DNA of 64,000 bases, from assembly GCA_963749975.1 (NCBI GenBank), contig CAVVOZ010000031.1, positions 1,270 to 65,269 on the forward strand, given 5' to 3'. The stretch's first letter is position 1, and each line of letters opens with the position of its first letter. Shown here in pieces: positions 29,853-62,407 of the stretch. The position numbers and the translations under genes are program-made. The DNA is from an uncultured Candidatus Rokubacteria bacterium (lineage in GTDB: Bacteria; Methylomirabilota; Methylomirabilia; Rokubacteriales; DASRDR01). The notes beneath the pieces were generated by a model. The model was not told the DNA's origin and ran no database searches. It saw only the letters and a program-made list of their open reading frames with translations.

Positions 29853-31556
29853 TCAGTCGGCGAACGTCACGCGGAGGACCTCATCGATCGTGGTCAGCCC
29901 GTTCGCCACCTTCCGGAGCCCGGTCTGACGCAGGGTCCGCATCCCGGCCTTCACCGCGATGTCCTTGAGCTCGTTGGCGGGCCGCTGGCGGACGATGGCT
30001 TCCTGGAGCTCCGGAATCATCCACATGATCTCGTGGATGGAGATCCGGCCCTTGTACCCGGTGTTGGCGCAGGTGGCACATCCCTTCCCCGCATAGACGC
30101 GCACGCCCTCGGCCTCCTCGGGACGGAACCCGATGTCGATCAAGGCGGACACCGGCACCTGGACGGGCTCGCGGCACTCGAGGCAGGTCCGGCGCACCAG
30201 GCGCTGCGCGATGACCAGGAGCAGCGACGAGGAGATCAGGAAGGGCGGGATGCCCATGTCCTGGAGCCGCGTGACCGTGCTGGGGGCGTCGTTGGTGTGC
30301 AGCGTGGAGAACACCAGATGCCCGGTGAGGGCGGCGCGGATCGCGATCTGCGCCGTCTCCAGGTCGCGCATCTCGCCGACCAGGATCACGTCCGGGTCCT
30401 GCCGCAGGAACGCCCGCAGGGCGGCGGAGAAGTTGTAGCCGATGTCCTCGCGCACGAGCACCTGATTGACCCCGGCGATGCTGAACTCGACGGGATCCTC
30501 CGCCGTGATGATGTTGATGTCGGGGTTGTTGATGGTCGCGATGGCCGCGTAGAGCGTCGTGCTCTTGCCGCTGCCGGTGGGCCCCGTGCACAGGATCATG
30601 CCGTAGGGCGTCGTGATGGTCTTCTTGAACCGATTGAGGTCGTCCTCCTCGAACCCGAGGCGGGTGAGGTCGAGGACGACGCTCCCCTTGTCCAGGACCC
30701 GCATGACGATCTTCTCGCCGAAGGTCGTGGGGAGCGACGAGACGCGCAGGTCGATCTCGCGGTTCTGGAACTTCACGGACAGCCGGCCGTCCTGCGGCAG
30801 GCGCCGCTCCGCGATGTCCAGGTTCGACATGATCTTGACCCGCGACAGGATGGCCGGCTCCATCTGCTTGGGCGGGTTCATCATGTCGTGGAGCACGCCG
30901 TCGATCCGGTACCGGACGCGGAAGACCTTCTCGTACGGCTCCAGATGGATGTCCGAGGCCCGCTTCCGGATGGCATCGGCGATGATCAGGTTGACGAAGC
31001 GGATCGTCGGGGCCTCTTCGGCCTCCCGCCCCAGCTCCGCGATGTCGACCTTCGCGCCCTTGTCCACCAGCTCGAGGTTGGTGTCGATGCCGCTGGACTC
31101 CTGGTCGATGAGCTTCTTGATGTCGTCGACACCCGAGCTGTAGTTGTGGTCGATCGCGCCCCGGATGGCGCTCTCGGCCGCCAGCACGGGGATGACGTGG
31201 AGCCCGGTGGCGAACTGCACGTCGTCGATCGCGAGCACCACGGTCGGGTCCGACAGGGCGAGCGTCAGCGTGTTCCCGACCTTCCGGACGGGGAACACCT
31301 GGTACTTCTGGACGATCTCCTTGCGGACGAGCCGCAGGATGTCGGGGTCGGCCTCCACGCGGCCGAGGTTGATCACCGGGATGCCGTACTTCCGGCTGAG
31401 GAAGTCGAGCAGCTCGTCCTCGGTGATGAAGGCGAGCCGCGTCAGGACCGTCGCCAGCCGCTCCCCCGACCGCCGCTGGTCGGTCACGGCCTTCTGCGCC
31501 TGATCCGGGGTGAGCAGGTTCTCCTTGACCAGCAGATCGAGCAGCCGCGGGTTCAC
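29853..31556 (-). CDS. pilB: Type IV pilus extension ATPase PilB (GspE family)
   Basis: 567 aa; GPTGSGKSTTL Walker A, tetracysteine motif CLECR…CATC. Confidence 0.95.
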   Translation of the reverse strand: MNPRLLDLLVKENLLTPDQAQKAVTDQRRSGERLATVLTRLAFITEDELLDFLSRKYGIPVINLGRVEADPDILRLVRKEIVQKYQVFPVRKVGNTLTLALSDPTVVLAIDDVQFATGLHVIPVLAAESAIRGAIDHNYSSGVDDIKKLIDQESSGIDTNLELVDKGAKVDIAELGREAEEAPTIRFVNLIIADAIRKRASDIHLEPYEKVFRVRYRIDGVLHDMMNPPKQMEPAILSRVKIMSNLDIAERRLPQDGRLSVKFQNREIDLRVSSLPTTFGEKIVMRVLDKGSVVLDLTRLGFEEDDLNRFKKTITTPYGMILCTGPTGSGKSTTLYAAIATINNPDINIITAEDPVEFSIAGVNQVLVREDIGYNFSAALRAFLRQDPDVILVGEMRDLETAQIAIRAALTGHLVFSTLHTNDAPSTVTRLQDMGIPPFLISSSLLLVIAQRLVRRTCLECREPVQVPVSALIDIGFRPEEAEGVRVYAGKGCATCANTGYKGRISIHEIMWMIPELQEAIVRQRPANELKDIAVKAGMRTLRQTGLRKVANGLTTIDEVLRVTFAD

Positions 31557-31584
31557 GATGGTGTGTCCTGTCGACCGAGCGCGC

Positions 31585-31956
31585 TCACGCTTCCGCCTTC
31601 CGGCCCAGCGTCTCGTTGACCAGCTCGATGAAGCGATCGAGCCCCGAGCCTTTTTCGAAGAAGGAGACTGCCTTGTGGTGCGCGACCTTCCTGGCGAGGG
31701 AATCCCCCACGAGCCCCGTGATCAGAATCACGGGCAGGTCGCCACTCGTGCGCCGGATCGCGTCCAGCACGACCAGACCGTCCATGTCGGGCATCATGAT
31801 GTCGAGCACCGCCAGCTCGGGAGGAGACTCCTCGAACTTCCGGAGGGCTTCCTGGCCGGAAGTCGCCCGGATCACTTGATGGCCCTCGAGTGTCAGGATG
31901 TCATCGAGGACATCCAGAACAGCCGGGGCGTCGTCGGCAACGAGGATGCGTGCCAT
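31585..31956 (-). CDS. Single-domain response regulator (REC only)
   Basis: VADD…DIMMPDMDG…K pattern, 123 aa. Confidence 0.85.
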   Translation of the reverse strand: MARILVADDAPAVLDVLDDILTLEGHQVIRATSGQEALRKFEESPPELAVLDIMMPDMDGLVVLDAIRRTSGDLPVILITGLVGDSLARKVAHHKAVSFFEKGSGLDRFIELVNETLGRKAEA

Positions 31957-45697: not shown

Positions 45698-46706
45698 TCA
45701 GCGGAAGAGGGCGCTGTAGGCGTTGAGCGCCGGCTGACCGCCCAGGTGGGCGTAGAGGACCGTCGCGCGCTTCTCGATCTCGGCCCGGGACACGAGATCG
45801 ATGAGCCCCGCCATCGACTTCCCCTCGTAGACGGGGTCCGTCAGCATGCCCTCGAGCCTCGCCGCCAGCCGTATGGCCTCCAGCGTTCGCTCATCCGGAA
45901 TCCCGTACGTCCCCGCGTGGTAGCGGTCATCCAGGACGATCTCCTCGTCGCGCAGGTCCCGTCCCAGGTCGATGAGGTCGGCCGTCCGGCGCGCGATGCG
46001 CGTCACCTGCTCGAGGGTCTCCTTGGCCTTGGCCGAGGCGTCGATCCCGATGACCCGGCGGGGCCGCTTCTGCGCCGCGAAGCCCGCGATCATCCCGGCC
46101 TGCGTGCTCCCCGTGACCGAGCACACGATGACCGTGTCGAAGAACACGCCGAGCTCACGCTCCTGGTGCTCGACCTCCCGGGCCCACTGCGCGAAGCCGA
46201 GGCCGCCCAGGCGGTGGTCCGACGCGCCGGCCGGGAATCGCGTACGGCCGCCCGCCGGACGCCTCGATCTCCGCGAGCGCCTGCTCCCAGCTCTCCTTGA
46301 ACCCGATCCCGAACCCGGCCTGCACCAGGCGGACGTCCGCGCCGAGAATCCGGCTGAGCAGGATGTTGCCCACGCGGTCGTAGACGGCATCGGGCCAGTC
46401 CACCCAGCTCTCCTGGATCAGCACGCACCGCATCCCCACCCGAGCCGCGGCCGCCGCCACCTGGCGCGTGTGGTTGGACTGGACCCCGCCGATGGAGACG
46501 AGCGTGTCGCATCCTTGCGCGATCGCGTCCGCCACCAGGTACTCGAGCTTCCGGATCTTGTTGCCTCCGAAGGCGAGCCCGCTGTTGCAGTCGTCGCGCT
46601 TCGCCCAGATGCGGGCTCCGCCGAGGTGGGCGCTCAGCCGCTCCAGCGGATGCACGGGAGACGGACCGAAGAGGAACGGATACCGGGCAAACGAGTCGAG
46701 CTTCAT
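45698..46706 (-). CDS. PLP-dependent ACC deaminase / D-cysteine desulfhydrase family enzyme; frame change near 46250
   Basis: ORF 46155..46979 N-terminus ([11 protein letters not shown]…[11 protein letters not shown]) plus ORF 45698..46390 C-terminus. Confidence 0.8.
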
Positions 46707-46739
46707 GCGGGCTCCCCGATCCACCCGCGTGGGCCGCCT

Positions 46740-48230
46740 AGCTATAGAAGCGGTGTCGAGACGCTTCGTCGCCCGAACGCCAGGAGGCTCGATGGCTACA
46801 GACTGTATAGCGCAGGTGACGTTCGAATGCCAAGGGCTGTCGCAGCCCATCGTCGCGCGGTTCGACCAGGCCCACGCGAGTTCGGATGGCGGGGCCGTCT
46901 TGCTCAAAGCCCTCGACGACCACCTGGGCCTGACGCGGCGGGTGGCGGCCAGCCTGACCGACCGGAGGCAGCCCGGCAAGGTCCAGCACGCGCTGCTCGA
47001 GTTGGTGCAGCAGCGCGTCTTCGGGATCGCCTGCGGCTACGCCGACTGCAACGACAGCGCGCGGCTGGCCGAGGACCCGGTCTACAAGCTCCTGCTCGAC
47101 CGCGATCCGCTGACCGGGCCGGCCTTGGCCTCCCAGCCGACGCTCTCCCGCTTCGAGAACGGCGTGGGCTGGCACGCGCTGTATCTGGCGAGCGTCGCCC
47201 TCGCGGACCTGGTCATCGCGCAGCATCGCGCACGGCTCCAGGGGCGGGCCCGGCGGATCACGATCGATCTCGACCCGACCGACGACCCCACGCACGGCCA
47301 GCAGGAGCTCAGCTTCTTCAATGGCCACTACGACACCTGGTGCTACCTCCCACTGGTGGCGACGCTGACGTTCAACGCCGAGCCGCGGCAGTACCTGGTC
47401 GCCGCCGTGCTGCGGCCGGGCAACAGCCCGGCCAAGCGGGGCGCGCTCGGCCTGCTGACGCGCCTGTGTCGGCGGCTGCGCGCCGCCTTCCCGGGGGCCC
47501 TCCTCCGGGTCCGGCTGGACGGGGGCTTTGCCAGCCCCGAGGTCTTGGACGGCTTGGACGCCGGGGGGGTCGAGTACGTCGTGGCGATGGCCAGCAATGC
47601 GCGCCTGGTCAAGCGCAGCCGCCGCTTGATGGGGCGGGCCCGGATGCTCTCCAAGGCCAGTGGCGCGACCGAGCACCTCTACGGCGAGACTCGGTACGCG
47701 GCCCGGAAGTGGAAGCGGAAGCGACGCATCATCATGAAGGCCGAGGTCGTGCGCCATCCTGGGCGCACGCCCAAAAACAACCCGCGCTTCGTGGTCACCA
47801 ACCTCCTCGACCCGCCCGAGGCGGTCTACCACGTCTACTGCGGGCGGGGCGATATGGAGAACCGGTTGAAGGAGTTGCATCACGGCCTCGAACTGGATCG
47901 CACGAGCTGCGAACGGTTCACGGCGAACCAGTTCCGGGTGCTCCTGACGGCCGCGGCGTACATCTTGTTCCAGACCCTCCAGGCCCACGCTCAGGGGACG
48001 GCGTGTGCCGACGCCCAGGTCAGCACGCTGCGCGAGCGGCTGCTCAAGCTGGCGGCCTGGGTCGAGCGCTCGGTGCGGCGGATCGTGTTGCATCTGCCCA
48101 CCACCTATCCCTGGCTTTCCACCTGGCGCCAGATCGCCGTCGCCGTCGGCGCGGCCCCGGCGTAGTCGCCGCGCCGCCACCGCCCGCCCGACCCCCCGGG
48201 AGACGTGTCTCTCCGCGGTCCGTGGAGAAT
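46740..48230 (+). mobile_element. IS4-family insertion sequence (one transposase gene); boundaries approximate and no clean terminal inverted repeats resolved
   Basis: DDE transposase ORF with an AGGAGG RBS, inserted ~35-80 bp upstream of the ACC-deaminase-like start codon. Confidence 0.55.
46789..48165 (+). CDS. IS4-family DDE transposase (~458 aa)
   Basis: DDE_Tnp_1-like sequence with Y-x2-R-x3-E-x6-K signature ([16 protein letters not shown]). The ORF-track N-terminal extension back to 46468 is rejected. Confidence 0.8.
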
Positions 48231-49297: not shown

Positions 49298-49880
49298 TCA
49301 GTTGCCCACGTGCAGGTTCTGGACATCGATTCCGCGCGCCCTCGAGGCCGACGCGCATCTGCCGGAATCCCGCCTGCCGGCCGCGCACTCAGCGCGTGAC
49401 GCCTTCGAAGGCCTCCACGGGCTGGCCGCCCGGTCGAGGCGCCGCGGCGTCTCCATGGTCGCAGCTGCGCGTACTCGGGTGACGAGCGCGGTCCCGATCA
49501 CGTTGACGCCGAGGCTCCGCGGCCAGTCGTCGACCGTGGCGTCCAGGCCCTTGAGCACGAAGACCGCGGCGTTGTTGACGAGGACGTCCACGCCTCCGAA
49601 GCGGGCGACGGTCTCCTCGGTCAGGCGCCGGGCGTCGGCCTCGTGCGCGATGTCGGCCCGGACGAAAGCAGCCTGGCCGCCCTGAGCCACGATGGCGGCA
49701 GCGGCCTCCACCCCCGCCAGGACATCCACGTCCGCCACAACTCTGCGCGCGCCTTCATGGGCGAACAGCTCGCACGTCGCACGCCCGATGCCGGCCGCGC
49801 CGCCGGTCACGATTGCGACCTTGCCGCTGAGGCGCTCGCCCACGAGCTTGCCCGCGATCAGGCCACGCGCCCGCCGGGGT
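49298..49880 (-). CDS. SDR-family oxidoreductase, probably frame-disrupted or truncated
   Basis: GKVAIVTGGAAGIGRA…NNAAV motifs; the catalytic YxxxK is not recovered in frame. Confidence 0.5.
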
Positions 49881-50631
49881 GGCGCCGCCAGACCTCGGGC
49901 TCGTACAGAGGGATGAAGAGCGTCGACTCCCGCTTGATGCGGGCGCATGCGCGGTGGAACTCCTCCAGGCTCTCCTGTGCACCGAGGGGCTCGCCGGCCT
50001 CCAGATTCCGATACGTGAACACGCGAGTCGCTGATCGCCACCGGGCCTCGCGCCGTGTCGACGAGGTAACACATCGACGAGCGGTGGTGCACCCCGACCC
50101 AGAAGGCGCGTAGACCAGGACGACTTCGTCCTCGTCCTCCAGCAGGTGCACCCGCTCCCATCCCTCGAACATGAGGTACTGGAGCGTGTCGCGCGGAATG
50201 CGGTGCCACCGTGAGACATGCATCGGGAATTTCTCCGCGTGAAAATCCTCGATCCAGTCCCGCTTGGACAGGCAGACCCGCGCGTTCGGAAAGAGCTGAA
50301 TGTTGGCGGTGGCGTACGACTGCAGCGGCGTGACCAGGACATGCGTCACGTCTTCGGGACGGACGCCCAGGCCCGCCAGCGCGTTCAGGGGCCGCTCGCG
50401 CTCCTCCCGGCGCATCTCGCCGCGCGCGCCGAAGGCTGCGTGCCAGCGCGCATTGAGATCCGCCAGATCCGACGGCGGCCCGGTGTTGACGATCGCCGTG
50501 ACGCCGGGGCCGCGGATGACGACCATCCAGAAGTGGAGGGTCACCCACTCGTGCCAGTGGCTCATCCAGAAGACCTCCGGACCGGCCACGTCGCACTCGC
50601 CCATCTTGAGGACCTGCAAGGAAAAGGTCAT
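49858..50631 (-). CDS. MBL-fold-like hydrolase (quorum-quenching lactonase-like?); two local frame changes
   Basis: ORF 49858..50631 with an internal segment recovered from the frame of ORF 49298..50596 (…HHRSSMCYLVDTARGPVAISDSRV…). Confidence 0.45.
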   Translation of the reverse strand: MTFSLQVLKMGECDVAGPEVFWMSHWHEWVTLHFWMVVIRGPGVTAIVNTGPPSDLADLNARWHAAFGARGEMRREERERPLNALAGLGVRPEDVTHVLVTPLQSYATANIQLFPNARVCLSKRDWIEDFHAEKFPMHVSRWHRIPRDTLQYLMFEGWERVHLLEDEDEVVLVYAPSGSGCTTARRCVTSSTRREARWRSATRVFTYRNLEAGEPLGAQESLEEFHRACARIKRESTLFIPLYEPEVWRRHPGGRVA

Positions 50632-51050: not shown

Positions 51051-52574
51051 TCAGAGGATCCCGCGGTCGAGCGTGCGGTAGGCGAGCGCTTCCGCGAGGT
51101 GCTCGACCGCGATCGCATCGGCCCCGGCCAGGTCGGCGATCGTCCGCGCCACCTTGAGCACGCGGTCGTGGGCGCGCGCCGAGAAGCCGAGCCGCGCCGC
51201 CGCCCGCGCGAGGAGGGCCCGGCCCGCCGGCGGCAGCGGGCAGTGGCGCAGGAGCTGGCGCGGCGTCAGCCGCGCGTTCACGCGCACGGGCCCGCGCCCG
51301 AGCCGCGCCCGCTGGCGCTCGCGCGCGCGGGTGACCCGCTGCTGGACCGCCGCCGATTCCGGCGGCGCGCCGTCGCCTGACATGGACGTCTCCGGCATCA
51401 CCGGCCCCACGTCGACGTGGAGGTCGATCCGGTCGAGCAGCGGCGCCGACAGCCGTCCCAGATAGCGCGCCCGCTCGCCCGGCGTGCACGCGCACCCGTC
51501 CACGCTCCGGCAGCCCCGCCGGCACGGGTTCATCGCCCCCACCAGCTGGACCTCCGCCGGCAGCCGCACCGCCCCGCCGACCCGGGCGATCGTCACCGCG
51601 CCGTCCTCCAGCGGCTGGCGGAGCGTGTCGAGCGCGTGCGGAGCGAACTCGGGCAGCTCGTCCAGGAACAGCACGCCCAGGTGGGCCAGGCTCACCTCGC
51701 CCGGATGCGGCACGCGGCCCCCGCCGACCAACCCGGCCGGCGAGACGGTGTGGTGGGGCGCGCGAAAGGGCCGGCGCGTCACGAGGCCCTCCGGCGGAAG
51801 CAGCCCCGCCACGCTCCAGATCCGGCTCGCCTCGATCGCCTCCGCCAGCGTGAGGGGCGGCAGGATCGTCGGCAGCCGCCGCGCGAGGAGCGTCTTGCCC
51901 GTCCCCGGCGGGCCGATCAGCAGCACGTGGTGGCCGCCGGCCGCCGCGATCTCCAGCGCGCGCTTCGCGTGCGCCTGACCGCGCACGTCGCCGAGGTCGA
52001 CGTCGTCGGGCGGCGCGACCGCCAGGAGCTGCCCCGGATCCCCACGAGTCCGGGCGATCGGATGCTCCTCGTTGAGGAACGCCGCCGCCTCCGCGAGCGA
52101 GGTCACCGGGTACACGGCGAGGGCCTCCAGCACCGAGGCCTCCGAGGTGTTGCCGGCGGCGAGAAGGCAGCCGTCGAGACCCGCATGGCTCGCCCGGAGC
52201 GCCATCGGGAGCACCCCGCGCACGGGATGGATCGCCCCGTCGAGGGCCAGCTCCCCCACCACAAGGAGGCGCTCCAGCCGCTCGGGCTTGACCGCGCCCG
52301 TCGCCGCCAGGAGGCCGAGCGCGATCGGCAGGTCGAAGCTGACGCCTTCCTTCCGCACGTCCGCCGGCGCGAGGTTGACGGTCACGCGCTCGAGGGGGAA
52401 CGCGAAGCCGGAGTTCCGGATCGCCGTGCGGACGCGCTCCCGGCTCTCACGCACCGCCGGATCCGGCAGGCCCACCGTCGCAAACGTGGGCAACCCCTGG
52501 CTCACGTCGACCTCGACGCGGACCAGCGCCGCGTCGACGCCGGCCAGGCAGGCGGAGAAGACCCGGGCGAGCAT
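51051..52574 (-). CDS. comM: YifB/ComM Mg-chelatase-like AAA+ ATPase
   Basis: 507 aa; ChlI-type GPPGTGKT Walker A, C-terminal Mg_chelatase_C. Confidence 0.92.
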   Translation of the reverse strand: MLARVFSACLAGVDAALVRVEVDVSQGLPTFATVGLPDPAVRESRERVRTAIRNSGFAFPLERVTVNLAPADVRKEGVSFDLPIALGLLAATGAVKPERLERLLVVGELALDGAIHPVRGVLPMALRASHAGLDGCLLAAGNTSEASVLEALAVYPVTSLAEAAAFLNEEHPIARTRGDPGQLLAVAPPDDVDLGDVRGQAHAKRALEIAAAGGHHVLLIGPPGTGKTLLARRLPTILPPLTLAEAIEASRIWSVAGLLPPEGLVTRRPFRAPHHTVSPAGLVGGGRVPHPGEVSLAHLGVLFLDELPEFAPHALDTLRQPLEDGAVTIARVGGAVRLPAEVQLVGAMNPCRRGCRSVDGCACTPGERARYLGRLSAPLLDRIDLHVDVGPVMPETSMSGDGAPPESAAVQQRVTRARERQRARLGRGPVRVNARLTPRQLLRHCPLPPAGRALLARAAARLGFSARAHDRVLKVARTIADLAGADAIAVEHLAEALAYRTLDRGIL

Positions 52575-52699
52575 TACCCGCCTCGCCGGAACGGCGACCT
52601 CGACGCTCGGGCCCCCGCGGTCCCCTGATCCGTCCGGCCCATGCGCGAAGGCACTGCAAGCCGCGCTCCCAGAGGTGCCGCACGGCCGGGCGTCGAGTG

Positions 52700-53058
52700 A
52701 CGGGCGGTTCGCTCAGGCGGACAGCCGGCCTGGCGGCGTCGACGTCATACAGGGCGTATCCGTCAGGATGTCCAGCCGTCGAGGCCGAAGGCGTGCTTGA
52801 GATGCCGCACGCCGGTCACCCCGCCCGCCTCGTCGAGCGACACCCCCACCACGTCGAAGCGGCAGGACTGCTCGCCGAGCCGCCGCGCCGCGAGGTAGCC
52901 GAGCGCGAGCCGGCCAAGCCGCGCGCGCTTCCGGATATCCACCCCGGCTTCGGGCGGATCGCCGGACAGGCCCCGCCGGGCCTTCACCTCGACGAACACG
53001 AGCGTCGACCCGTCGCGGGCGAGAAGGTCGATCTTGCCGAGCCGCGACCGGAGCTATC
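52700..53058. repeat. Direct repeat copy 1 (~360 bp); partner at ~59375..59720
   Basis: Direct alignment of the two regions read from the sequence. Confidence 0.8.
52763..53058 (-). pseudogene. yraN: yraN (UPF0102 endonuclease) 3' fragment; homology to the full copy starts abruptly at 53058, right after in-frame TGA TAG
   Basis: About 88% nt identity to 59434..59720; the N-terminal ~40 codons are missing. Confidence 0.7.
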
Positions 53059-53291
53059 AGAACTCGTCTCTTGTCTGAGTTCTTGGCGGTATCCGAGGTC
53101 GAACACATCTTTGACGCGGTCGCCCGCCCGTCGCGCCGCGGGCCGCATCCAGCGCTACGCCAAGCAAGGCCGCCAGCCCGCTCGCCGAACGGGCACGCAC
53201 CGCCGCGTGCGGCGACCCCTGGCGAAGAGGCCGGTGACGAAGCGCCGACTGTGTCGTACCCAACACAAGGCGCACCTGTGGGTGATCAGCG

Positions 53292-53321
53292 ACAGTTGAC
53301 TGACGTGGAGCGCCCTCCCTA
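53292..53321 (+). promoter_or_regulatory. Sigma70-type promoter TTGACT-N18-TATAGT upstream of the GT-C/discoidin gene
   Basis: Read directly; lower-GC 300-bp intergenic region; gene GTG start at 53373. Confidence 0.4.
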
Positions 53322-53372
53322 TAGTGACGCGGTGTCGGCGAGCCAAGAGCATTCGAGCAACTGAGGCGCGCA

Positions 53373-56109
53373 GTGACCAGCCGCCGTGGCGCTCGGCGAG
53401 GTCTGTGGCTACCTATCGCGATCCTCGCCGTGGCGGCGGCGGTTCGCGGTCTGCGGTTCTGGGCGGAGTTCGTGACGTTCGCGCACGTCGACGAGGCGCG
53501 CGTCGCCATCCCGGCCCTGCAGATTCTGGCGGGTACGTTTCCAGTCCACCATGTGGGGGTCGAATACCACGGCGCGGCTCCGGCCTATCCTCTCGCTGCT
53601 TGGTTCGCGCTGGTCGGCGTATCCTCGGGGAGCCTCGATGTCTTCGCCTACCTGATAGGGCTGGCGGGCGCGGCGACTGGGTACTGGCTCGCGTGTCGCC
53701 TGCTGCAGCCGCCGGCCGCGATCCTGGCCGGCCTGGCCATCGCCGTGCCGCCATTGCTCGTCGCGCGGTGGTCACTCAGTGCCAACCTGAACTATCCGCT
53801 CACGTTCCTGCTCGGCCATGTGATCTTGCTCGGTACCCATCGGCTGTACCGCGGAGACCCCATGCGGGGGACAACGATCCTGGCGGTGTCGCTCGTGGCC
53901 GGCCTCGGCTGGTGGACCAACCCCCTCATCGTCGCCTACTGCTTTCCGCTCGCCGTCCTGGCGCTCCGGAGAGGCCTCGTGTTCGAGCCGACGTTCTGGC
54001 TCGTCCCGCTGGGCGTTCTCCTCGGCGGGCTACCGGACTGGCTTTACGAGGTCACGCACTTTCCCACGATGCGGTTCATGCTCCACGAGGCGGGTTCGTT
54101 GCCGGCCCAGTCGGTCGGCGCGCGAGCAGCAGAGCTTATAGGGTATCTTGCGTTCGAGCTGCTCGGCGCAAGGCCCGAAGGGCTCCGATCCGTCCCGCCG
54201 TTGTTGGTCCAGGTCTTGGTTGTGGCGATTGGCGGATTCGCCGTTCTGCGCGCGGTCGTACGGGACCGGGACGAGTTGCGGTGGCTCGTTGGGGCGGGCG
54301 GCCAGCCGAGATCGGGACTCGGGCTCCTCTGGGCGATGGTCGTCGGCCACATCGGCCTCATGCTCTTCACGCACCGGACGCTTGGAGCGACGTACTGCGT
54401 GCCGCTCTACGCGGCGCTCTCGATCTGGACGGGGGAGGCCCTGGCCTGGCTCTGGCTCCGTCGCCGATGGCTCGGGGGCGGAGCGGTCACCGTCCTAGTC
54501 GCGTGGCACCTTTGGGCAAACTTTGGGGCATCGCTGGGGAGCCCCGCCGCGTCGGCACCGCGCTGGACACGGCTCGAGGCCACCGCACGGCCTCTCATCG
54601 ACTGGCTCCTGGCCCGCAACATCCGCCATGTTCAGTGGACCGCGGAGGACGAGAGCCTCGCATCCTTCGAGCTCACATTCCTGTCAGGATACCGGGTGAT
54701 CGCCAGTCAGCTTTGGCATGAAGCGGTGGTGCAGCACGGATGGGCAGTCGATGCGGAGGAGATGCCGCTCATCGTGACTGGGGAGCGGGAGCTTGGTCCC
54801 CTACGCGCGAGCCTTGCCGCCCTGGGACTGGGGGTTCGGGAAACCCGGGTAGGTCGCTTCGTCGTGGTCGAGCCCACGGCTGCGTCGAGGGGCTTTGCCC
54901 CGCTCGCGCCCGACGGATGGACGGTGACGGCCAGTCATCGGACGCACGAAGCCGGGAACCTGCTGGACCGGGACGTCGCCACGGGCTGGAGCACAGGGGA
55001 CCGGCAGCGGTCCGGCGAATGGTTGACTGTCGATCTGGGAAGGGCGGAAACGGTCGGGCGCGTCGACCTGCTCGCGATTGACTGGCAAGAAGTGCCCGCG
55101 GCGTTTCGGGTGGAATCGTCCCTGGACGGCCGGCAGTGGCACGAGGCGGTGACGGTCACGGAATACTGGGGTCCGCTCTTCCTGTCGGAGGGCCGGCCGT
55201 TTCTGAGAGCCCGGCACGGCCGGGTGCAGGCGATCTTTTCGCCAGTGCAGTGCCGCTTCCTGCGGATCGTTCAACTCGGCGAATCGGGCCATGCGTGGGC
55301 TGCGCGAGAGCTCTTCGTCTACCGACCCGCCGCGCCTCGTCCGTCGTCGACCGACCCTTCGCCTGAAGGGCTCGCATGGTCGCTGCACCGCGCCGGGATA
55401 CGGATGGTCTACGCTGGGCCGTGGCTCTCGGCCCGCGTCCTAGCGGGATCCCGGGGTACCCTGGGAGCGCTCGATTCGAACATCAACGTGAACTCGTACG
55501 GGCGGACGCGGCCCGAGCCGACCACGCTCGAGCGGTTCCGGCTGGAGGAGGGGCGCGGCCTCCTGCTGGGCGGGGACACCGACTTCACCGGAATACGGGA
55601 GGTGCTTGCCGGGCGCGGCGTCCCGATGCACGAGACGGGAATCGGCCCGTATCGGCTGTTGGCCTTGACCCGCCCCAAGACGACAACGCCCTCTGTCACC
55701 TCACGGGTGGCGCGCGTCCGCGGCCTTGCGGACGGATGAGGCGGGGCGGATGCTCGACGGGGACTTTCGGACACGGTGGAGCGCGGAACGCGCGGTCGAT
55801 CCTTCCGTCCACGTCACCGTCGATCTGGGTGTAGCGCGACGGATCGCAGGGGTGCGCATCCTGCCCGGCTCCCGCGAGGGCGGGCCCAGCAAGCTCACGA
55901 TCGAGGGATCGACGGATGGGGTGATCTGGATACGGCTGGAACCTCTGGAGTGGGCGGGTCAACTCTACTGGACGGGGTACGAGCTGCTCCGGAACAGCCT
56001 CCGGGAGTGGGCGGTCACGTTTCCGCCGACCACGGTGCGATACCTCCGGCTGCGCCCAGCGGCATCCGCACCAAGGTGGGACATCGAGGAAATCGCCGTG
56101 TTCGAGTGA
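53373..56109 (+). CDS. GT-C-fold (PMT/ArnT-like) membrane glycosyltransferase domain fused to two F5/8 type C (discoidin) domains (~910 aa); frame change near 55730
   Basis: ORF 53373..55739 (12+ TM N-terminus, first discoidin …WSTGDRQRSGEWLTVDLG…) plus ORF 55726..56109 (second discoidin). Confidence 0.7.
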
Positions 56110-56357
56110 CCGCCGCCACGGATCAATGATGATCGGGGCCGTGACATGGATCATCCTCACGCGTCCGAAGTGGCTCAGCACGCCGGTCCCGGTGCCCGGC
56201 TGCCCCCCTGGCGTCACGGGTACCATGACGGCGCGCCTTGCTGGTCCGCCCGGTGATCGAGGCGAACCCCGAGCGGCCACCGCGTGATGCCTCCCCAGTG
56301 TTCTCCGTCGGATCCGGTCAGCGGGCGCTCACCGTTCGCCCGAAGGTGTAGCGCACC

Positions 56358-59134
56358 GTGCGGACGGCACCTATCTTGATCGGCATGTTCGGGAGAGCCG
56401 CGCGCGACCGGCCGAATCGGGGCGCCCGATGGGCCTGGCTGCCGCTCGTCCTGCTCGTCGTGGCGGCCGGTGTCCGGGCGCTCCGCTTCGCCGCTCCGTT
56501 CCTGAAGCCGTACGAGTGGGACGAAGCCGCGACCGGCGTGTGGGGCATCCAGCTGCTCGCCGGGACGTTTCCGGTCTACTTCCTCGGCAACGAATACCAG
56601 GGCGTGCCCGCCGCCTACCCTCTCGCCGCATGGTTCGCGCTGGTCGGGTCGTCGACCCACGCATTGGACGCCTTTGCCTACGTCCTCGGGCTCGTGCTTC
56701 TCTGGACAGGCTGGCTCGTGATCCGGCGCTTCCTCCCCCCGGATGCGGCCATTGCCGCCCTCCTGGTCCTCGTCGCGCCGCCGCTCCCGTTGGCGTCGCG
56801 GAGCCTCAACGGCGGCCTGGACTACCCGACGTTGCTCGTGCTTGGCCAGCTCTTCATGCTCGGCACGCACTCGGTGTTCTACCGAAGAGTCCCGCTTCGA
56901 CGGGCTCTTCTCGGCCTCGGCCTCGTGGGGGGGCTTGGCTGCTGGAACAGCCCGCTGTTCGGCGTGTACCTGGCGCCATTCGTGTGGCTCGCGCTCCGAC
57001 ACGGCCTGGCCTGGCGGCGCGAGGTCGCCTGGTTCGCGGGGGGTGCGCTTCTCGGGAGCCTCCCAACAGCGGTATACGAGGCCGTGTACTTTCCGTCCAC
57101 GCGTTTCATCGTCCATGCGGGAGGGAGCATCCCCGTCGATCCGGTTCTCGTGCGCGCGGCGACGGTGTTCGGCACGCACGTCCCCGATCTGCTCGGCGTT
57201 CCGGAGTTCGGATCGCTCCAATCGAGCACGCTGGCCGTATCCGCATCGCTGGTCCTCCTCGGCATTGCCGTCGCGCTCTGCTGGGACCGTGCCGAGCTCC
57301 GGTGGCTCCTGGCGCTCGGCGACGCTCGAGGCTCGGGTCGCGTCATCCTGTGGATCGTGCTGGTCAGCAACCTGGTCGTGGTGATCGCGGCCCCGCAGGG
57401 CGCGGTCGGAAGCCGCTACCTCCACCCGCTCTACGCGGTGCTACCCGCCTTCGCCGGCATTGCGCTCGCGTGGCTGTGGCGCCGCCGCCGCTCCATCGCG
57501 GTCATCGTGGCTGGCGCGCTGATCGGCATCCATGCGCTGGCACAACTGGACGCATGGGCCGGGCGGCACCCCTTCCGCCCAATGGCGGTGGAGCCCGACC
57601 ACGCGCGCGCTCGAGCCGCTGCTGGTCTGGCTCGAGTCGCGCGGCATCGACCATGCGTACTGGGCGTTCCGCGGCCTGCCCCCCAGCTACGAGATGACCT
57701 ACCTCGCCGCAGGGCGCGTAGTCTTCGCGGACGCGTGGCGTGAGCTGGCGCTGCCCTATGCCCGCGAGGTCGATGCGAGCAAGGCGCCACCGTTCGTCGC
57801 CCCGGATGGGGCCGATGAGGTCGACGAACTCCGAGACACGCTTCCGGCACTCGGCCTCGAGGTTCGCGAGACGCGGGTCGGCCGGTACGCCGTCTTCGAA
57901 ACCAGCGCCCGGGGCCGATCCGGGTTCGTGGCCCTGCCTCCCGACGGCTGGCGCGTGAGCGCCGAGCCCGAACGGCCCCGCGATCACGAGCCTCACCGAT
58001 CGCGACGTAGCGACCGGCTGGTCGACCGGTCGCGGCCAGCAGCCCGGCCAGCAGATCGTCATCGATCTCGGGCGGGACGCGCTCGTCACGCGGGTCGATC
58101 TGCTCGTGGTCGACTGGCAGGAAGTCCCGGCCGGATTCCGCATCGATGTATCACGGGACGGCGAACGATGGGAGTCGGTCCTTACGGTGCCGCGCTACTG
58201 GGGTCCTCTGTTCTTCTCCGAACACCACGCGATGCTCAAGGTTCGGCACGGCCGCGTGCAGGCAGTGTTTCCGCCCACCACGACGCGGTGGCTCCGGATC
58301 GTGCAGACCGGGACGGTTTCCTACCGCTCGTGGAAGGCGCGCGAGCTCTTCGTCTACGCCCCAGGGCCGCCACCGAGCGATGACGTGCCGCCAATCGAGC
58401 CGCTGTTCCGGGATCGTCGTCCCGAGTTCGTCTACACCGGTCCCTGGCTCGCGGCGCGGCTCCACACGGAGCTCGGCGACCGAGTCCGGGTCCCCGAATC
58501 CAACTACTTCACCAACAACAACGGCCACCACCTGCCGGATCCCCGTTGGCTGGAACCGCTCCGGATCGAACCGGGGCGGGTGATCCTGCTGGGCCAGGAC
58601 GCGGACGCGGCTGGGGTCAGGGCCATGCTCGCGGCCCGCGGTGTGCCGGTGGACACGCGAGTCGATGGACCCTATCAGCTGCTGACTTTCAAGACCACGG
58701 AGAAGGCTCGCCTCCTCGACCGGGCTGGATGGCGGGCCACGGCCAGCGTCGATGCCGCCAACGCCCAGCGCGCGATCGACGGAAAGGCAGGGACGCACTG
58801 GATATCCGGTGGCCCGGCATCGCCGCAAGACCATCTCACAGTCGACCTGGGACGCATCCGAGAGATCTCCGGGATCCGCCTCACCCCTGGCTCGCAGGCG
58901 GGAGGACCGCTGGCGCTCGGCCTCGAGGGCTCGGACGACGGAATCACCTGGACCGCGCTCGGGCCGCCGACGTGGGCCGGGGCTCTCTACTGGACCGGGT
59001 CCGAGCTCCTGCGGAACAGCGAAGAGGGCTGGTCGTTCGTATTCCCGGCAGCACGCGTGCGGATCCTCCGGATCCGTCCCTCGCGTCCGTCGCCGACGCC
59101 CTGGATCGTGGCCGAGCTCGAGTGCTTCGACTGA
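56358..59134 (+). CDS. Paralog of 53373..56109 with the same GT-C + 2x discoidin architecture; frame changes near 57600 and 58100
   Basis: ORFs 56358..57743, 57532..58383 and 58106..59134 align colinearly to the upstream paralog. Confidence 0.65.
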
Positions 59135-59374
59135 CCGGAACGATGACCACGCCGCGACCCGCCCCACCGGGACAGCCGCCCGGCGTGATCACCTTCAGTG
59201 CCCGCTTCACGCCCGCGTGACACCGCATGTCCGCGAGATCGAGGTCGTCGGACCTCCCCGCCCGGCCCAGAACCAGAGGCGAAGCCCGGACCGGATCGTC
59301 TCGGGACGTCCGGCCGGCGGCGCCGCCGGGCGCTCGGCGTGCCCGCGAAACAGTCGCGGCCGGGGCGCCGAGTT

Positions 59375-59720
59375 GCGGGCGGTTCGCTCGGGCGGGCGGC
59401 CCGACCGCGTCAACGTCATACGGGGCGTATCCGTCAGGACGTCCAGCCGTCGAGGTCGAAGGCGTGCTTGAGGTGCCGCACGCCGGTCACCCGGCCCGCC
59501 TCGTCGAGCGACACCCCCACCACGTCGAAGCGGCAGGACTGCTCGCCGAGCCGCCGCGCCGCGAGGTAGCCGAGCGCGAGCCGGACGAGCCGCGCACGCT
59601 TCCGGCCATCCACCGCGGCCTCGGGCGGATCGCCCGACAGGCCGCGCCGTGATTTCACCTCGATGAAGACCAGCGTGGCGCCGTCTCGGGCCAGGAGGTC
59701 GATCTCGCCCAGCCGCGACC
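59375..59720. repeat. Direct repeat copy 2 (within full-length yraN and its 3' flank)
   Basis: See 52700..53058. Confidence 0.8.
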
Positions 59721-59838
59721 GGAGGTTCCGCGCGAGGATGACGAGACCGCGCCGCTTGAGATAGCGCACGGCCGCGGCTTCCCCCGCCTGGCCGACGGAC
59801 CGTGTCGTGGCGCGGGGCGGATCGCGCTGCCACCGCAT
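59434..59838 (-). CDS. yraN: YraN-family (UPF0102) endonuclease, full length
   Basis: ORF 59434..59847; AAVRYLKRRGLVILARNLRSRLGEIDLLARDG…. Confidence 0.8.
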   Translation of the reverse strand: MRWQRDPPRATTRSVGQAGEAAAVRYLKRRGLVILARNLRSRLGEIDLLARDGATLVFIEVKSRRGLSGDPPEAAVDGRKRARLVRLALGYLAARRLGEQSCRFDVVGVSLDEAGRVTGVRHLKHAFDLDGWTS

Positions 59839-59954
59839 GCCGGTCACCGTGCAAGGACCCGACCAGGCGGCAAGCCCGCCGGATGTCGAGCCGGCACTCG
59901 CGGGCGCTCATCGCGGGCGGCTGCCCGCGGATGCGCGTCGTGTCCGGGCGGTCA

Positions 59955-60655
59955 GCGCCGGCTCGCGCCCTCCAGGATCCGCACCATCTCGGCGTAGCCG
60001 CGCGCCCGGGCGTGGGCGAGCGGCGTGACGCCCTGGCGGTCGGCGAGATCGATGGCGGCCCGCGCCTCGACGAGGAGGCGCGCGACGGCCACGTGGCGCG
60101 GCCCGCCGTCTCCGAGGATCACCGCCTCGAGGAGGGCCGTCCAGCCGAGGTTGTTGACGTGGTCGAGCGGGGCGCCGGCCGTCGACGAGGACCCGCACCA
60201 CCTCCACGTGGCCGAGATGCGCCGCCGCGATGAGGGCCGTGCCGTCGTAGGGGCTCGTGACGGTGCGCGGGCTCGCGCCGAGCGCGAGGGCAAGCTCGCA
60301 GCGTCGCCACGTCGTCACGCACCGCCGCGATCGTGACGACGTCGTAGCGCTGCGCGTCGAGGGCATCGGGGTCCGCGCCGCCAGCCACCAGGGCCCGCAT
60401 CGCCTCGGCCTGCGCGGCGAACGCGGCGACGTGAAGCGGCGTGCGTCCGTGGCCGTCCCGCGCGCCAGGATCCGCGCCGGTCGCGAGGAGCCGGCGGATC
60501 TCGATCGCGTCGCCGCGGGCCGCCGCCCCGTGGAGCCCCGTGTACGCGCGCATCTCGTCCGGGCCGGGCGGCACCTGAGGGAAGCCGGCGCGAGGCGCGA
60601 GCAGCGCCACGAGGCCGGCCAGGAGCAGCCCGACGAGACGGCTCACGGCCCGGAC
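59955..60655 (-). CDS. Secreted ankyrin-repeat protein; frame changes near 60180 and 60300
   Basis: Signal peptide VSRLVGLLLAGLVALLAP; ANK repeats spread over ORFs 60119..60994, 59908..60366 and 59952..60293. Confidence 0.6.
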
Positions 60656-60675
60656 GCGACGGCCGACCGGCGGCG

Positions 60676-61635
60676 TCAGGCCGGTTCCGGCGAGGGCAGC
60701 TCCACGCCCTCGAGGGGATCCGACGCCGGGTGGTAGTACATCCACTCGGCGGCGCCCTCGGCGACCGTGCGGTTGAGCGCGCGCGCCTGGCGCTCGCCCA
60801 GGTCGCGCACGATCTCGCCGGCCGGCGCGCGGCGCGCGACGATCAGGGCGTGGCGGGCATCGAGCGGGACCCGCACCTCGTGGGCGGATCCGAGCCCCAC
60901 CTGGTAGAGCTTCGCGGCGGCCGACGGCGCCCAGAGCACGACGGGCGTGTCGCTGGTCAGGAGCACCGGTGCCGGAAAGCGGACGACCTGCCACGTGCGG
61001 GCCGCCAGCTGACGCGCGAGCGCCGGCATCGACGCCAGCGACCGCCCGACCGGCGGTCGGCCCGGGAGCATCACGTCCGGCGCACTCGCGCCGCCGACTG
61101 CCTCCGGCTTGCGCGCCGCCCGGGCCTTCGGGGCAGCCGGGCCTTCCATGCCCGGGCTCTCGGGCTCGTCCACTTCGGCTTCCTCAGGGGCCTCCTCAGG
61201 GGCCTCCTCCGCCACCTCGGCCTCCTCCTCGTCTTCCTCGGACTCCTCGATGGTCGAGACGATGAGCTGGCCGACGAGGGTCGCCATCCGCCCGGCCTCG
61301 GCCCGGTGATACCGCCCGAGGAGGAGCTGCGCGGCGAGGACGAGGGCGAGGCTCGCCCGATCGGACTCGCGTGGCGGGAACGCGCCGGCCGTGATCCGCT
61401 GGACGGCCTCGGCCCCCCGTGCCTCCACCTCGGCGAGGAGGCGCGCGAGCGCCGGGGCATCGGTCCGGTCGGCCACGAGCGCATAGCGCCCGAGCTCCGC
61501 CACGGCGGCGTCCACCAGGACCAGCCGCCGGCGGGTGCGGTCCCGCCGCTCCGCGATGAGCTGGCCGGTGGCGTCGGCGAACCCCGCGAGGAGGAAGCGG
61601 GGGACGAGCGGGCGCTCGAGCGCGATCGGGCTCAC
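60676..61635 (-). CDS. Hypothetical protein with an acidic low-complexity insert (EESEEDEEEAEVAEEAPEEAPEEAEVDEPE)
   Basis: ORF 60676..61713; a likely GTG start just after the rnhB stop. Confidence 0.45.
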   Translation of the reverse strand: MSPIALERPLVPRFLLAGFADATGQLIAERRDRTRRRLVLVDAAVAELGRYALVADRTDAPALARLLAEVEARGAEAVQRITAGAFPPRESDRASLALVLAAQLLLGRYHRAEAGRMATLVGQLIVSTIEESEEDEEEAEVAEEAPEEAPEEAEVDEPESPGMEGPAAPKARAARKPEAVGGASAPDVMLPGRPPVGRSLASMPALARQLAARTWQVVRFPAPVLLTSDTPVVLWAPSAAAKLYQVGLGSAHEVRVPLDARHALIVARRAPAGEIVRDLGERQARALNRTVAEGAAEWMYYHPASDPLEGVELPSPEPA

Positions 61636-61636
61636 G

Positions 61637-62344
61637 TCAGAAGAGCCGAAGCTCGAGGGAGGGATCGCCGCGCTCGCTCCCGACGCCGTGATCAACCCCA
61701 TGGCCAACTCCATGAAAAGAGCGCCGGTGGAGCGGGCACGGGCCGAGCCGCGCGAGCGCCTCGAGGTGCGCGGCGGTCGCGTAGCCCTTGTGCTGCCGGA
61801 AGCCGTACTCGGGATAGCGCCGGTCGGCGCGCAGCATGAAGGAGTCGCGGGTGACCTTCGCGAGGATCGATGCGGCGGCGACCGAGGCCGAGCGACGATC
61901 GCCGGCGATGATCGCCCGCTGGGCGCAGGTCACGCCGGGGATCCGGAGGTTGCCGTCCACCAGGACGAGACCGGGCGCGAGGCGTAGCCGCTCGAGCGCG
62001 GCCCGCATGGCGCACCAGGTGGCCTGCAGCACGTTGACCGTGTCGATCCGCCGCGGGCCGACGCGTCCCACGGCGAAGGCGAGCGCCCGGACGCGGATCT
62101 CGCGCGCGAGTCGCCGCCGTTGCCGGGCGCTGAGGAGCTTCGAGTCACGGAGCCCGTCGACCGGCGCCGTCGGGTCGAGAATCACGGCCGCGGCGACCAC
62201 CGGTCCAGCCAGGGGCCCGCGCCCCACCTCGTCCACCCCCGCCACCCAGAGCCCCCGCGCCCAGGCGCCACGCTCCTGGGCGTAGAGATCTTCCTCGAGC
62301 TCGAACAGCCCTGTCTGGAGGGGACCGGAGCGGCGCTGGCGCAC
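61637..62344 (-). CDS. rnhB: Ribonuclease HII
   Basis: VAGVDEVGRGPLAGPVV N-terminal motif, DSK, 235 aa. Confidence 0.9.
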   Translation of the reverse strand: MRQRRSGPLQTGLFELEEDLYAQERGAWARGLWVAGVDEVGRGPLAGPVVAAAVILDPTAPVDGLRDSKLLSARQRRRLAREIRVRALAFAVGRVGPRRIDTVNVLQATWCAMRAALERLRLAPGLVLVDGNLRIPGVTCAQRAIIAGDRRSASVAAASILAKVTRDSFMLRADRRYPEYGFRQHKGYATAAHLEALARLGPCPLHRRSFHGVGHGVDHGVGSERGDPSLELRLF

Positions 62345-62407
62345 GCGGGGGGTCGCCCACGCGACCCGCCGGCGTGCCGCCGGCGGGTCTGGGAGCTCGT
62401 CGCGCGG

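Follow-up and report, generated by a model that had tools for sequence, protein, structure and literature searches.

Which reaction could be catalysed by two neighbouring proteins of an uncultured Candidatus Rokubacteria bacterium that combine an N-terminal membrane domain with two C-terminal discoidin domains? The respective genes are located on the plus strand of a 64-kb stretch of DNA with a G+C content of about 70% (contig CAVVOZ010000031.1; in the following referred to as the window), gene 1 at positions 53373-56109 and gene 2 at positions 56358-59134. A previous sequence-only reading had described them as tandem paralogs of about 900 amino acids each, encoding glycosyltransferases of the glycosyltransferase C (GT-C) type with lectin-like modules. 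Both genes were indeed found in these places, and the motifs that had been quoted for them could be located as well (WSTGDRQRSGEWLTVDLG in gene 1, RWSAERAVDPSVHVTVDLG in the open reading frame (ORF) at 55726-56109 and WDEAATGVWGIQLLAGTFPVYFLGNEYQGVPAAYPLAAWF in gene 2). We consider it rather probable that both proteins are inner-membrane transferases of the GT-C (class A) fold, which depend on polyprenyl-phosphate-linked sugars and hold a glycan acceptor with tandem carbohydrate-binding modules (CBMs) of family 32 (CBM32).

Two paralogs in interrupted reading frames

According to the ORF list, neither gene forms a single open frame as assembled. Gene 1 begins with an ORF of 788 amino acids (53373-55739), which was subjected to Pfam searches, structure modelling and Foldseek comparisons, and a +1 frame change then leads into an ORF of 127 amino acids (55726-56109). 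Gene 2 crosses three ORFs (56358-57743, 57532-58383 and 58106-59134). By removing one single-base insertion from gene 1 and two from gene 2, proteins of 911 and 924 amino acids are obtained, which are 43% identical across 914 residues and thus over the full length. The N-terminal domains of the two proteins are also 43% identical, and the Asp-Glu pair as well as many Gly, Pro and Trp residues have been kept.

The membrane domain and the GT-C fold

In gene 1, the membrane domain comprises residues 1-396 (about 53373-54560), with the pair D40-E41 following the first transmembrane (TM) helix. In gene 2, it is encoded by the first frame (56358-57535), which contains D55-E56 within 'YEWDEAATG', and it ends in the second frame. 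An AlphaFold2 model of the 788-residue gene 1 ORF, which was calculated from an alignment of 39 sequences, reached a predicted local distance difference test score (pLDDT) of 82.8 and a predicted template modelling score (pTM) of 0.82. When this model was compared with the Protein Data Bank (PDB) by Foldseek, the best matches were the mycobacterial arabinofuranosyltransferase D (AftD; 6w98, E 1.6e-9) and ArnT (5ezm, E 1.2e-8), the latter with a template modelling score of 0.59 on the length of ArnT. EmbC (7bve, E 7e-7) and STT3/AglB were matched as well, the E-values ranging from 1e-9 to 1e-6 at a probability of 1.00. These matches and the invariant Asp after TM1 bear out the GT-C nature of the N-terminal domain, and the Foldseek matches rule out that the membrane domain belongs to a transporter.

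At the level of sequence, PMT_2 (PF13231; gathering cut-off 26.1 bits) is the sole Pfam GT-C family that is matched by the N-terminal approximately 400 residues, with 17.4 bits for gene 1 and 20.2 bits for gene 2. The same family matches 25 of 39 relatives at E<=0.01 (best 1.1e-7), and second-tier relatives of about 900 amino acids and the same architecture reach 33-35 bits, which is above the cut-off. Judged by sequence, the window proteins can be regarded as divergent PMT_2-type proteins. A search of the PDB with the full-family profile yielded discoidin/CBM32 chains as the only matches, and a profile of the N-terminal domain, which was built from 18 diverse sequences, matched nothing there at E<=10. 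Therefore, the tie to solved GT-C enzymes rests on the fold comparison and on Pfam PMT_2. Neither PF02366 (PMT) nor the MIR domain was matched at E<=0.1 in the two genes or in the 39 relatives, and membership in GT39/PMT was rejected for this reason. Thus, of the previous description as a GT39-like domain with 12 or more TM helices, the GT-C fold holds, but the model shows about 11 helices, and the sequence resembles PMT_2 below threshold and is not GT39 proper. NCBIfam matches to Agl23 and NADase_discoid were far below threshold and have been rejected as evidence.

Residue D40, which is followed by E41, is invariant in 60 sequences sharing 20-45% identity, and it is likewise invariant in the alignment of the N-terminal domains. 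In the AlphaFold2 model, D40 is among the first residues of H37-52, the first loop helix, which directly follows TM1. The essential Asp of AftD is D41, which is also located just after TM1 (10.1101/2019.12.22.885152), and by this position D40 would correspond to D41 of AftD. Moreover, the loop formed by residues 230-247 shows low pLDDT values (at residues 231-242) but contains conserved residues. GT-C enzymes such as PglB and ArnT are known to have a mobile catalytic loop, for which this combination would be typical (10.1101/2019.12.22.885152). The helices of the model and the positive-inside rule suggest about 11 TM helices in an N-in/C-out orientation. With this topology, the Arg-rich loops (residues 1-10, 109-113, 156-167, 198-205, 297-316 and 362-366) are all placed on one side of the membrane, the cytoplasmic one, and the CBM32 modules would therefore be periplasmic.

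The tail of alpha/beta and CBM32 modules

The remaining part of both proteins is a tail of two modules, each consisting of an alpha/beta domain and a CBM32 domain. In gene 1, alpha/beta domain 1 (54564-54908) is followed by discoidin/CBM32 domain 1 (residues 521-646; 54933-55310), alpha/beta domain 2 (about 55338-55690) and discoidin/CBM32 domain 2 (about 55741-56094). The latter is encoded by the 3' frame (55726-56109), which is collinear with an intact ortholog (P0001, see below). In gene 2, the second frame (57537-57964) encodes the last part of the membrane domain together with alpha/beta domain 1, and the third frame (57966-59134) encodes CBM32 domain 1 (about 57968-58354), alpha/beta domain 2 and CBM32 domain 2 (about 58754-59089).

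The Pfam family F5_F8_type_C (PF00754; gathering score 28.2 bits) was matched with 49.7 and 53.0 bits by the two domains of gene 1 and with 84.7 bits over two stretches in gene 2. All four discoidin domains exceed the gathering score, and PF00754 is present in all of the 39 relatives. Foldseek aligned the discoidin part with the CBM32 structures 4lks, 4a42, 2v72, 4zy9 and 4a44 (template modelling scores of 0.63-0.79 on target length), and these matches support the predicted beta-sandwich (jelly-roll) fold of the galactose-binding-like type. Matches of the family profiles in the PDB include numerous CBM32 chains as well as galactose oxidase with its N-terminal domain. Pfam, Foldseek and the PDB profiles agree in that, as had been claimed before, each protein ends in two discoidin/galactose-binding-like domains and not in domains of another fold. 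The two halves of the tail are 30% identical over 185 residues (E=7e-18), and the modules arose by internal duplication.

The alpha/beta domain 1 reached a pLDDT of 93 when it was modelled alone. A comparison of this domain with PDB structures gave nothing significant, the best matches being generic Rossmann-like methyltransferase halves (best E 0.015). The Pfam family CBM_AftD is weakly matched by the window proteins (16 bits) and by 27 of the 39 relatives. According to hydropathy and the model, the window proteins have no C-terminal TM helices, and both of them end with the second discoidin domain.

Proposed function

In the proposed mechanism, the enzymes would take a sugar from a polyprenyl-phosphate-linked donor at the periplasmic face of the membrane and pass it to a glycan acceptor outside the cytoplasm. 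The catalytic and donor-binding site would be formed by the Asp-Glu pair that follows TM1 (D40-E41 in gene 1 and D55-E56 in gene 2) and by the conserved, mobile periplasmic loop 230-247. The tail with its two (alpha/beta + CBM32) modules would keep either the acceptor, a polymeric carbohydrate, or the growing product close to the active site. It has been proposed that the CBMs of AftD bind long branched arabinan (10.1101/2019.12.22.885152), and acceptor binding has likewise been proposed for EmbC (PMC3044687). By analogy, it is reasonable to assume that the lectin modules of the window proteins hold a glycan acceptor. As regards the donor type, GT2 enzymes and LPG_synthase_TM adjoin the relatives of one clade, and the pair itself has no such neighbour.

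The presence of several copies per genome fits with a set of enzymes, each of which would be responsible for another linkage or branch of an envelope polysaccharide. It is tempting to go further and to speculate, as a tentative idea to which we assign a low probability, that a lineage-specific GT-C expansion of the Rokubacteria/Methylomirabilota jointly builds a branched envelope heteropolysaccharide outside the cytoplasm. The lectin modules would then provide stage specificity, and the copies would have spread as small cassettes, one of which would be located here between a full and a truncated yraN gene.

Family, distribution and phylogeny

A word-indexed search retrieved about 53 full-length relatives of 880-970 amino acids, all of which are either unnamed or labelled 'F5/8 type C domain'. 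In a locus scan that considered one genome per species, 19 loci were found, all of them in metagenome-assembled genomes (MAGs) of Candidatus Rokubacteria/Methylomirabilota, three of the 19 being from a MAG that is titled only 'uncultured bacterium'. The genomes carry two to three or more paralogs. For instance, the single MAG with multi-megabase contigs possesses three dispersed first-tier copies and a more distant fourth copy of the same architecture. When 1.84 billion representatives were scanned by HMMER with just the N-terminal domain, 28 matches were obtained at E<=1e-30, and their number rose to 448 at E<=1e-10 and to 1665 at E<=1e-3. The second tier contains proteins of about 890-946 amino acids with PMT_2 and two discoidin domains. 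Many of the matches obtained with the N-terminal domain are shorter (500-680 amino acids) and have the length of tail-less ArnT-like proteins. The only names given to the matched proteins are 'hypothetical', 'discoidin domain-containing protein' (in a MAG labelled Deltaproteobacteria) and 'ArnT-like glycosyltransferase' (IMG).

In a neighbour-joining tree, gene 1 groups with P0001 and P0002 in a large core clade and gene 2 with P0048 and P0056. Because of the 43% identity and the different deep clades, the two genes are to be seen as old paralogs standing side by side, and a recent tandem duplication is ruled out. Tandem pairs of family paralogs recur in different combinations. The cluster of the P0014/P0029 clade also holds a second-tier paralog. 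In the literature, no paper joining discoidin domains with GT-C enzymes and none on Rokubacteria glycosyltransferases of this type was found. On the contig of P0002, an ortholog of gene 1 (L028), the 282-residue C-terminus of a family member that is 52% identical to gene 1 (3-851) is encoded 12 nt upstream of P0002 on the same strand.

Assembly errors or mutations

The sequence-only reading had placed frame changes near 55730, 57600 and 58100. The frame changes are truly present in the sequence, but their positions had to be refined to 55692, 57536 and 57965. The extra base at 55692 in gene 1 becomes apparent when the window (ACGCCC-T-CTGTCA) is compared with the intact ortholog (...GCCCCTCTCACC) on an 84-87% related contig (L002). 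The two frameshifts in gene 2 are due to an extra G at 57536 (CATGC[G]CTGG) and an extra A at 57965 (GCCG[A]GCCC), as revealed by comparison with contig_292452 of another ENA assembly (ERZ25039502; L001). This contig was aligned to positions 51065-59423 of the window, to which it is 98.6% identical, and over these 8.4 kb the two differ by 104 mismatches and 9 single-base indels. Gene 2 of L001 is an uninterrupted ORF of 924 codons, and its product differs from the corrected window protein by 5 of 924 amino acids. Furthermore, the indels run both ways. Two breaks of gene 1 occur in L001 but not in the window, and a 67-nt section of comM contains three insertions in L001, whereas the window correctly reads the conserved HHTVSPAGLVGGG...LFLDELPEF motif there. 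L001 is in the same ENA series as the 'contig_N' MAG assemblies of Microflora Danica. In the simplest reading, the window stems from a long-read assembly in which about one indel has remained every few kb. Since the assembly is indel-prone and L001 shows neither of the two breaks of gene 2, these are assembly errors, and it is almost certain that the gene is intact in vivo.

The break at 55692 is common to the window and L001, though the two differ by substitutions (P0003 stops at the same codon), and it may thus be a true mutation or else a systematic error that depends on the sequence context. Two exact-pattern scans of the JGI metagenome contigs uncovered no further copy of this region. The corrected gene 1 is collinear with the intact 911-residue ortholog P0001 (NCBI GCA_025450795.1), to which it is 85% identical, and 138 codons past the break are free of stop codons. 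The ratio of non-synonymous to synonymous substitution rates (dN/dS) of gene 1 relative to the 85% identical ortholog of L002 is 0.25 overall, 0.19 past the frameshift and 0.28 in the TM domain. The dN/dS between the window and L001 is based on 18 and 10 differences in the two genes, which are too few for statistical power. Overall, gene 1 and gene 2 are probably both intact in the organism. Because roughly one indel error per few kb has to be assumed for the window, its frame breaks should not be taken as pseudogenes without read-level support.

Irregular frames are also present elsewhere in the window. A PALP-family enzyme resembling ACC deaminases (45698-46979, minus strand) is split in two frames covering the Pfam profile positions 5-131 and 130-293, and a short-chain dehydrogenase (SDR; 49298-50596, minus strand) ends at profile position 119 of 195. 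The ankyrin (Ank) gene (59908-60994, minus strand) is split in the window and intact in L002. Between the PMT_2 gene described below and a gene for a HEAT-repeat protein (15410-17863), two overlapping minus-strand ORFs (17446-20475 and 19101-20741) without a Pfam match suggest another large frame-broken gene. The DUF4238 ORF (60676-61929, minus strand) overlaps the RNase HII ORF (61637-62407) on the same strand by about 290 nt, which could be explained either by a wrong start codon or by another indel. Finally, a prepilin-like N-terminus (GLSLTELVVTLALF...) at about 10977 on the minus strand is followed by a stop after about 90 codons, and this ORF may be an indel-broken minor pilin or pseudopilin.

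Genomic context

The pair is located on the plus strand inside a run of housekeeping genes on the minus strand, the order being trmD, rplS, rnhB, DUF4238, Ank and yraN, then gene 2 and gene 1, and then a truncated yraN and comM. As had been noted before, the pair is flanked by direct repeats of yraN, which are 372 nt long, 89% identical and cover the 3' part of the gene. The left copy (52683-53053, minus strand) consists of a 5'-truncated yraN (UPF0102) remnant and downstream sequence and adjoins comM (51051-52574). The right copy (59357-59724) extends into the full-length yraN/UPF0102 gene (59434-59847, minus strand; 89 bits), the whole feature spanning 59357-59847. This layout resembles that of an insertion carrying its own copy of the 3' end of the target gene, although an integrase gene is lacking. 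The related contig L002 has the same flanks and has kept gene 1, but the region corresponding to 56130-59287 of the window, which includes gene 2, is missing, and its left yraN remnant is about 365 nt shorter than that of the window. About 5 kb upstream of the comM-yraN-GT-C segment, there is an insertion sequence of the DDE_Tnp_1_4 type. Its intact transposase gene (565 amino acids, 402 bits; 46468-48165, plus strand) is arranged head-to-head with the broken PALP gene, the start of which it overlaps.

Most relatives of the two genes are solitary, and one paralog clade belongs to a conserved glycan cluster in two Rokubacteria MAGs (L023, 6199-19103; L026, 7198-19254). The first part of this cluster encodes a GT2-methyltransferase fusion, LPG_synthase_TM, a GT2 enzyme, a GDSL esterase and the GT-C protein with discoidin domains. 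The remainder encodes a YfhO-like GT-C protein of about 880 amino acids, a GT2 enzyme, a second PMT_2 protein with discoidin domains (915-1000 amino acids), an NAD-epimerase and an AsnB-like amidotransferase. Moreover, an ortholog of gene 2 adjoins GT4 genes.

The window contains another GT-C cluster, which had correctly been placed next to pilA and comprises a PMT_2/PMT gene (20561-22420, minus strand) and a GT2 gene (22826-23797, minus strand). Here, a pilA-like pilin gene with a GLTLVELMVV... motif (about 23750-24100, minus strand) is followed by the genes for the GT2 enzyme (100.8 bits) and a 619-residue PMT_2/PMT GT-C protein (52.7 and 35.6 bits). This set is located downstream of pilB, pilT, pilC, pilS and pilR (24385-31721), and the GT2 and PMT_2 genes look like a candidate pair for pilin glycosylation. 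The GT-C protein next to pilA is unrelated in sequence to the discoidin-bearing family. It had also been asked whether homologs of the pair co-occur with the pilA-linked GT2 gene, but in the eight other contexts of relatives neither this gene nor a pilin gene was found. These contexts thus do not support a functional link of the pair to the GT2 and PMT_2 genes next to pilA.

Alternative explanations

Several observations speak against the assignment of the two proteins as glycan-acting GT-C transferases. The PMT_2 scores of both window proteins are below the Pfam cut-off, and no solved GT-C chain in the PDB is matched by the sequence of the membrane domain at E<=10, even by the family profile. 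No gene for a polyprenyl-phosphate sugar synthase or a flippase adjoins the pair, the neighbours being comM, yraN, rnhB, rplS and trmD, and the solitary position of most relatives points in the same direction. In addition, the frameshift at 55692 is present in two assemblies that differ by substitutions, and gene 1 may be truly truncated in this lineage. The membrane domain might instead be a non-catalytic module derived from a GT-C enzyme, such as a membrane anchor or an Agl23-like flippase-associated factor, and the protein a membrane-tethered lectin or sensor of extracellular glycans. This idea, which we consider very improbable, would be in line with the sub-threshold PMT_2 score, with the lack of donor-synthesis genes nearby and with weak matches to NCBIfam TIGR03663 ('flippase activity-associated protein Agl23'; E 0.006-0.08). 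However, the latter reach 12-16 bits at a cut-off of 126 bits and are no evidence of membership. Although the family has diverged to 20-45% identity, the Asp after TM1 is never replaced and many residues of the loops are kept, which argues for a retained active site, and the dN/dS of 0.28 in the TM domain also speaks against a non-catalytic module. Decay of the genes on an acquired segment, with real frameshifts and no full-length enzyme, is quite unlikely as well, even though three frameshifts are present in 5.8 kb, one of them recurs in a second assembly that differs from the first by substitutions, the pair resides on an insertion with a truncated yraN on one side and a full copy on the other, and gene 2 is absent from L002. 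Both breaks of gene 2 are missing in L001, where the gene is intact, and L001 in turn has two extra breaks in gene 1 and three insertions in comM that are not found in the window. Furthermore, unrelated conserved genes of the window (those for the PALP enzyme, the SDR and Ank) are frame-broken too, which fits with the residual indels of long-read assemblies, and the 138 stop-free codons past the break in gene 1, with a dN/dS of 0.19 relative to L002, speak against decay as well.

It is unlikely, though less so than the two explanations above, that the enzymes are protein O-glycosyltransferases resembling either PMTs or the O-oligosaccharyltransferases of pilins and S-layers. The CBM32 domains would then be the counterpart of the MIR domain and recognise a glycosylated protein such as a pilin. 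PMTs carry a DE motif after TM1, as do the window proteins, and the model suggests a similar number of about 11 TM helices. PMT_2 is the sole Pfam GT-C family that is matched, and the window holds a pilin gene with its own GT2 and PMT_2 pair. A lectin-like luminal domain is present in PMTs, too (PMC7759382). However, PF02366 and MIR are not matched by the window proteins, and pilA is about 30 kb away and accompanied by its own GT-C gene. A pilin gene was found in none of the eight other contexts. Moreover, the best structural match is the polysaccharide-modifying AftD, CBM_AftD is weakly matched in 27 of the 39 relatives, and tandem CBMs are typical of enzymes acting on polysaccharides. Thus, the transfer of sugars from a polyprenyl-phosphate-linked donor to a glycan that is held by the CBM32 modules is the function that we prefer for both proteins.

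Relevance of the family

GT-C enzymes act outside the cytoplasm, where they synthesise or modify glycans of the envelope, and very few bacterial representatives have been characterised. Lectin modules that are fused to GT-C enzymes have so far been documented mainly for the AftD and Emb proteins of mycobacteria, which are drug targets. The family described here adds a compact PMT_2-type GT-C protein with two CBM32 domains, which occurs in multiple copies per genome in an abundant uncultured soil phylum. With about 900 amino acids, a confident predicted structure and a clear predicted catalytic Asp, it could serve as a tractable model for studying how CBMs guide extracytoplasmic glycan assembly. 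The family may also be used as a marker for an unexplored surface polysaccharide of the Rokubacteria.

Comparison with known glycosyltransferases

The closest structural counterpart of the window proteins is AftD. Both have an N-terminal GT-C module, which comprises 11 TM helices in AftD, and an Asp directly after TM1 (D41 in AftD, where it is essential, and D40 in gene 1). Both also have a large periplasmic part containing several beta-sandwich CBMs, which in AftD have been proposed to bind a long branched glycan as the acceptor (10.1101/2019.12.22.885152). However, AftD consists of about 1,400 amino acids and contains three CBMs, an extra beta-sandwich domain and five C-terminal TM helices that bind an acyl carrier protein, whereas the window proteins are about 500 amino acids shorter and lack the C-terminal TM bundle. 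The membrane domains share no similarity at the sequence level, and the twofold repeat of an alpha/beta and a CBM32 domain is specific to the family of the window. Moreover, AftD, whose substrate is arabinan, occurs in Actinobacteria only, whereas the present family is found in Rokubacteria. Membership in the AftD family was therefore rejected on the basis of length, CBM number, the missing C-terminal TM bundle and the lack of a sequence match.

ArnT (GT83) gives the best overall superposition, which includes the membrane domain and the first periplasmic domain, and the ArnT/PMT_2 group is also the one to which the relatives are connected by significant PMT_2 matches and by the name of one of them in IMG. 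In contrast to the window proteins, which carry about 500 more periplasmic residues with two CBM32 domains and have no arn genes nearby, ArnT is a protein of about 550 amino acids with 13 TM helices and without lectin modules, which modifies lipid A and is encoded in the arn operon. PMTs of eukaryotes and actinobacteria (GT39) resemble the window proteins in their GT-C fold, which has 11 TM helices and carries the DE motif in the first luminal loop, and in the possession of a lectin-like accessory domain that faces away from the cytoplasm (PMC7759382; PMC12705809). However, their accessory domain is a beta-trefoil MIR domain in loop 5 and not a C-terminal CBM32 domain, and they act on Ser/Thr residues of proteins. 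Like the window proteins, EmbA, EmbB and EmbC (PDB 7bve and 7bvf; PMC3044687) contain a GT-C membrane domain that is followed by a C-terminal lectin-like CBM, which binds the polysaccharide acceptor. Unlike the window proteins, they have a CBM of another type and 15 TM helices and bind AcpM, and there is no sequence similarity. Thus, the combination of a GT-C enzyme with lectin modules is already known from AftD and EmbC and is not unprecedented. If the Rokubacteria indeed employ an expanded set of such enzymes for assembling a branched envelope polysaccharide, the family would parallel the Aft/Emb set of arabinosyltransferases that builds arabinogalactan and lipoarabinomannan (LAM) in mycobacteria.

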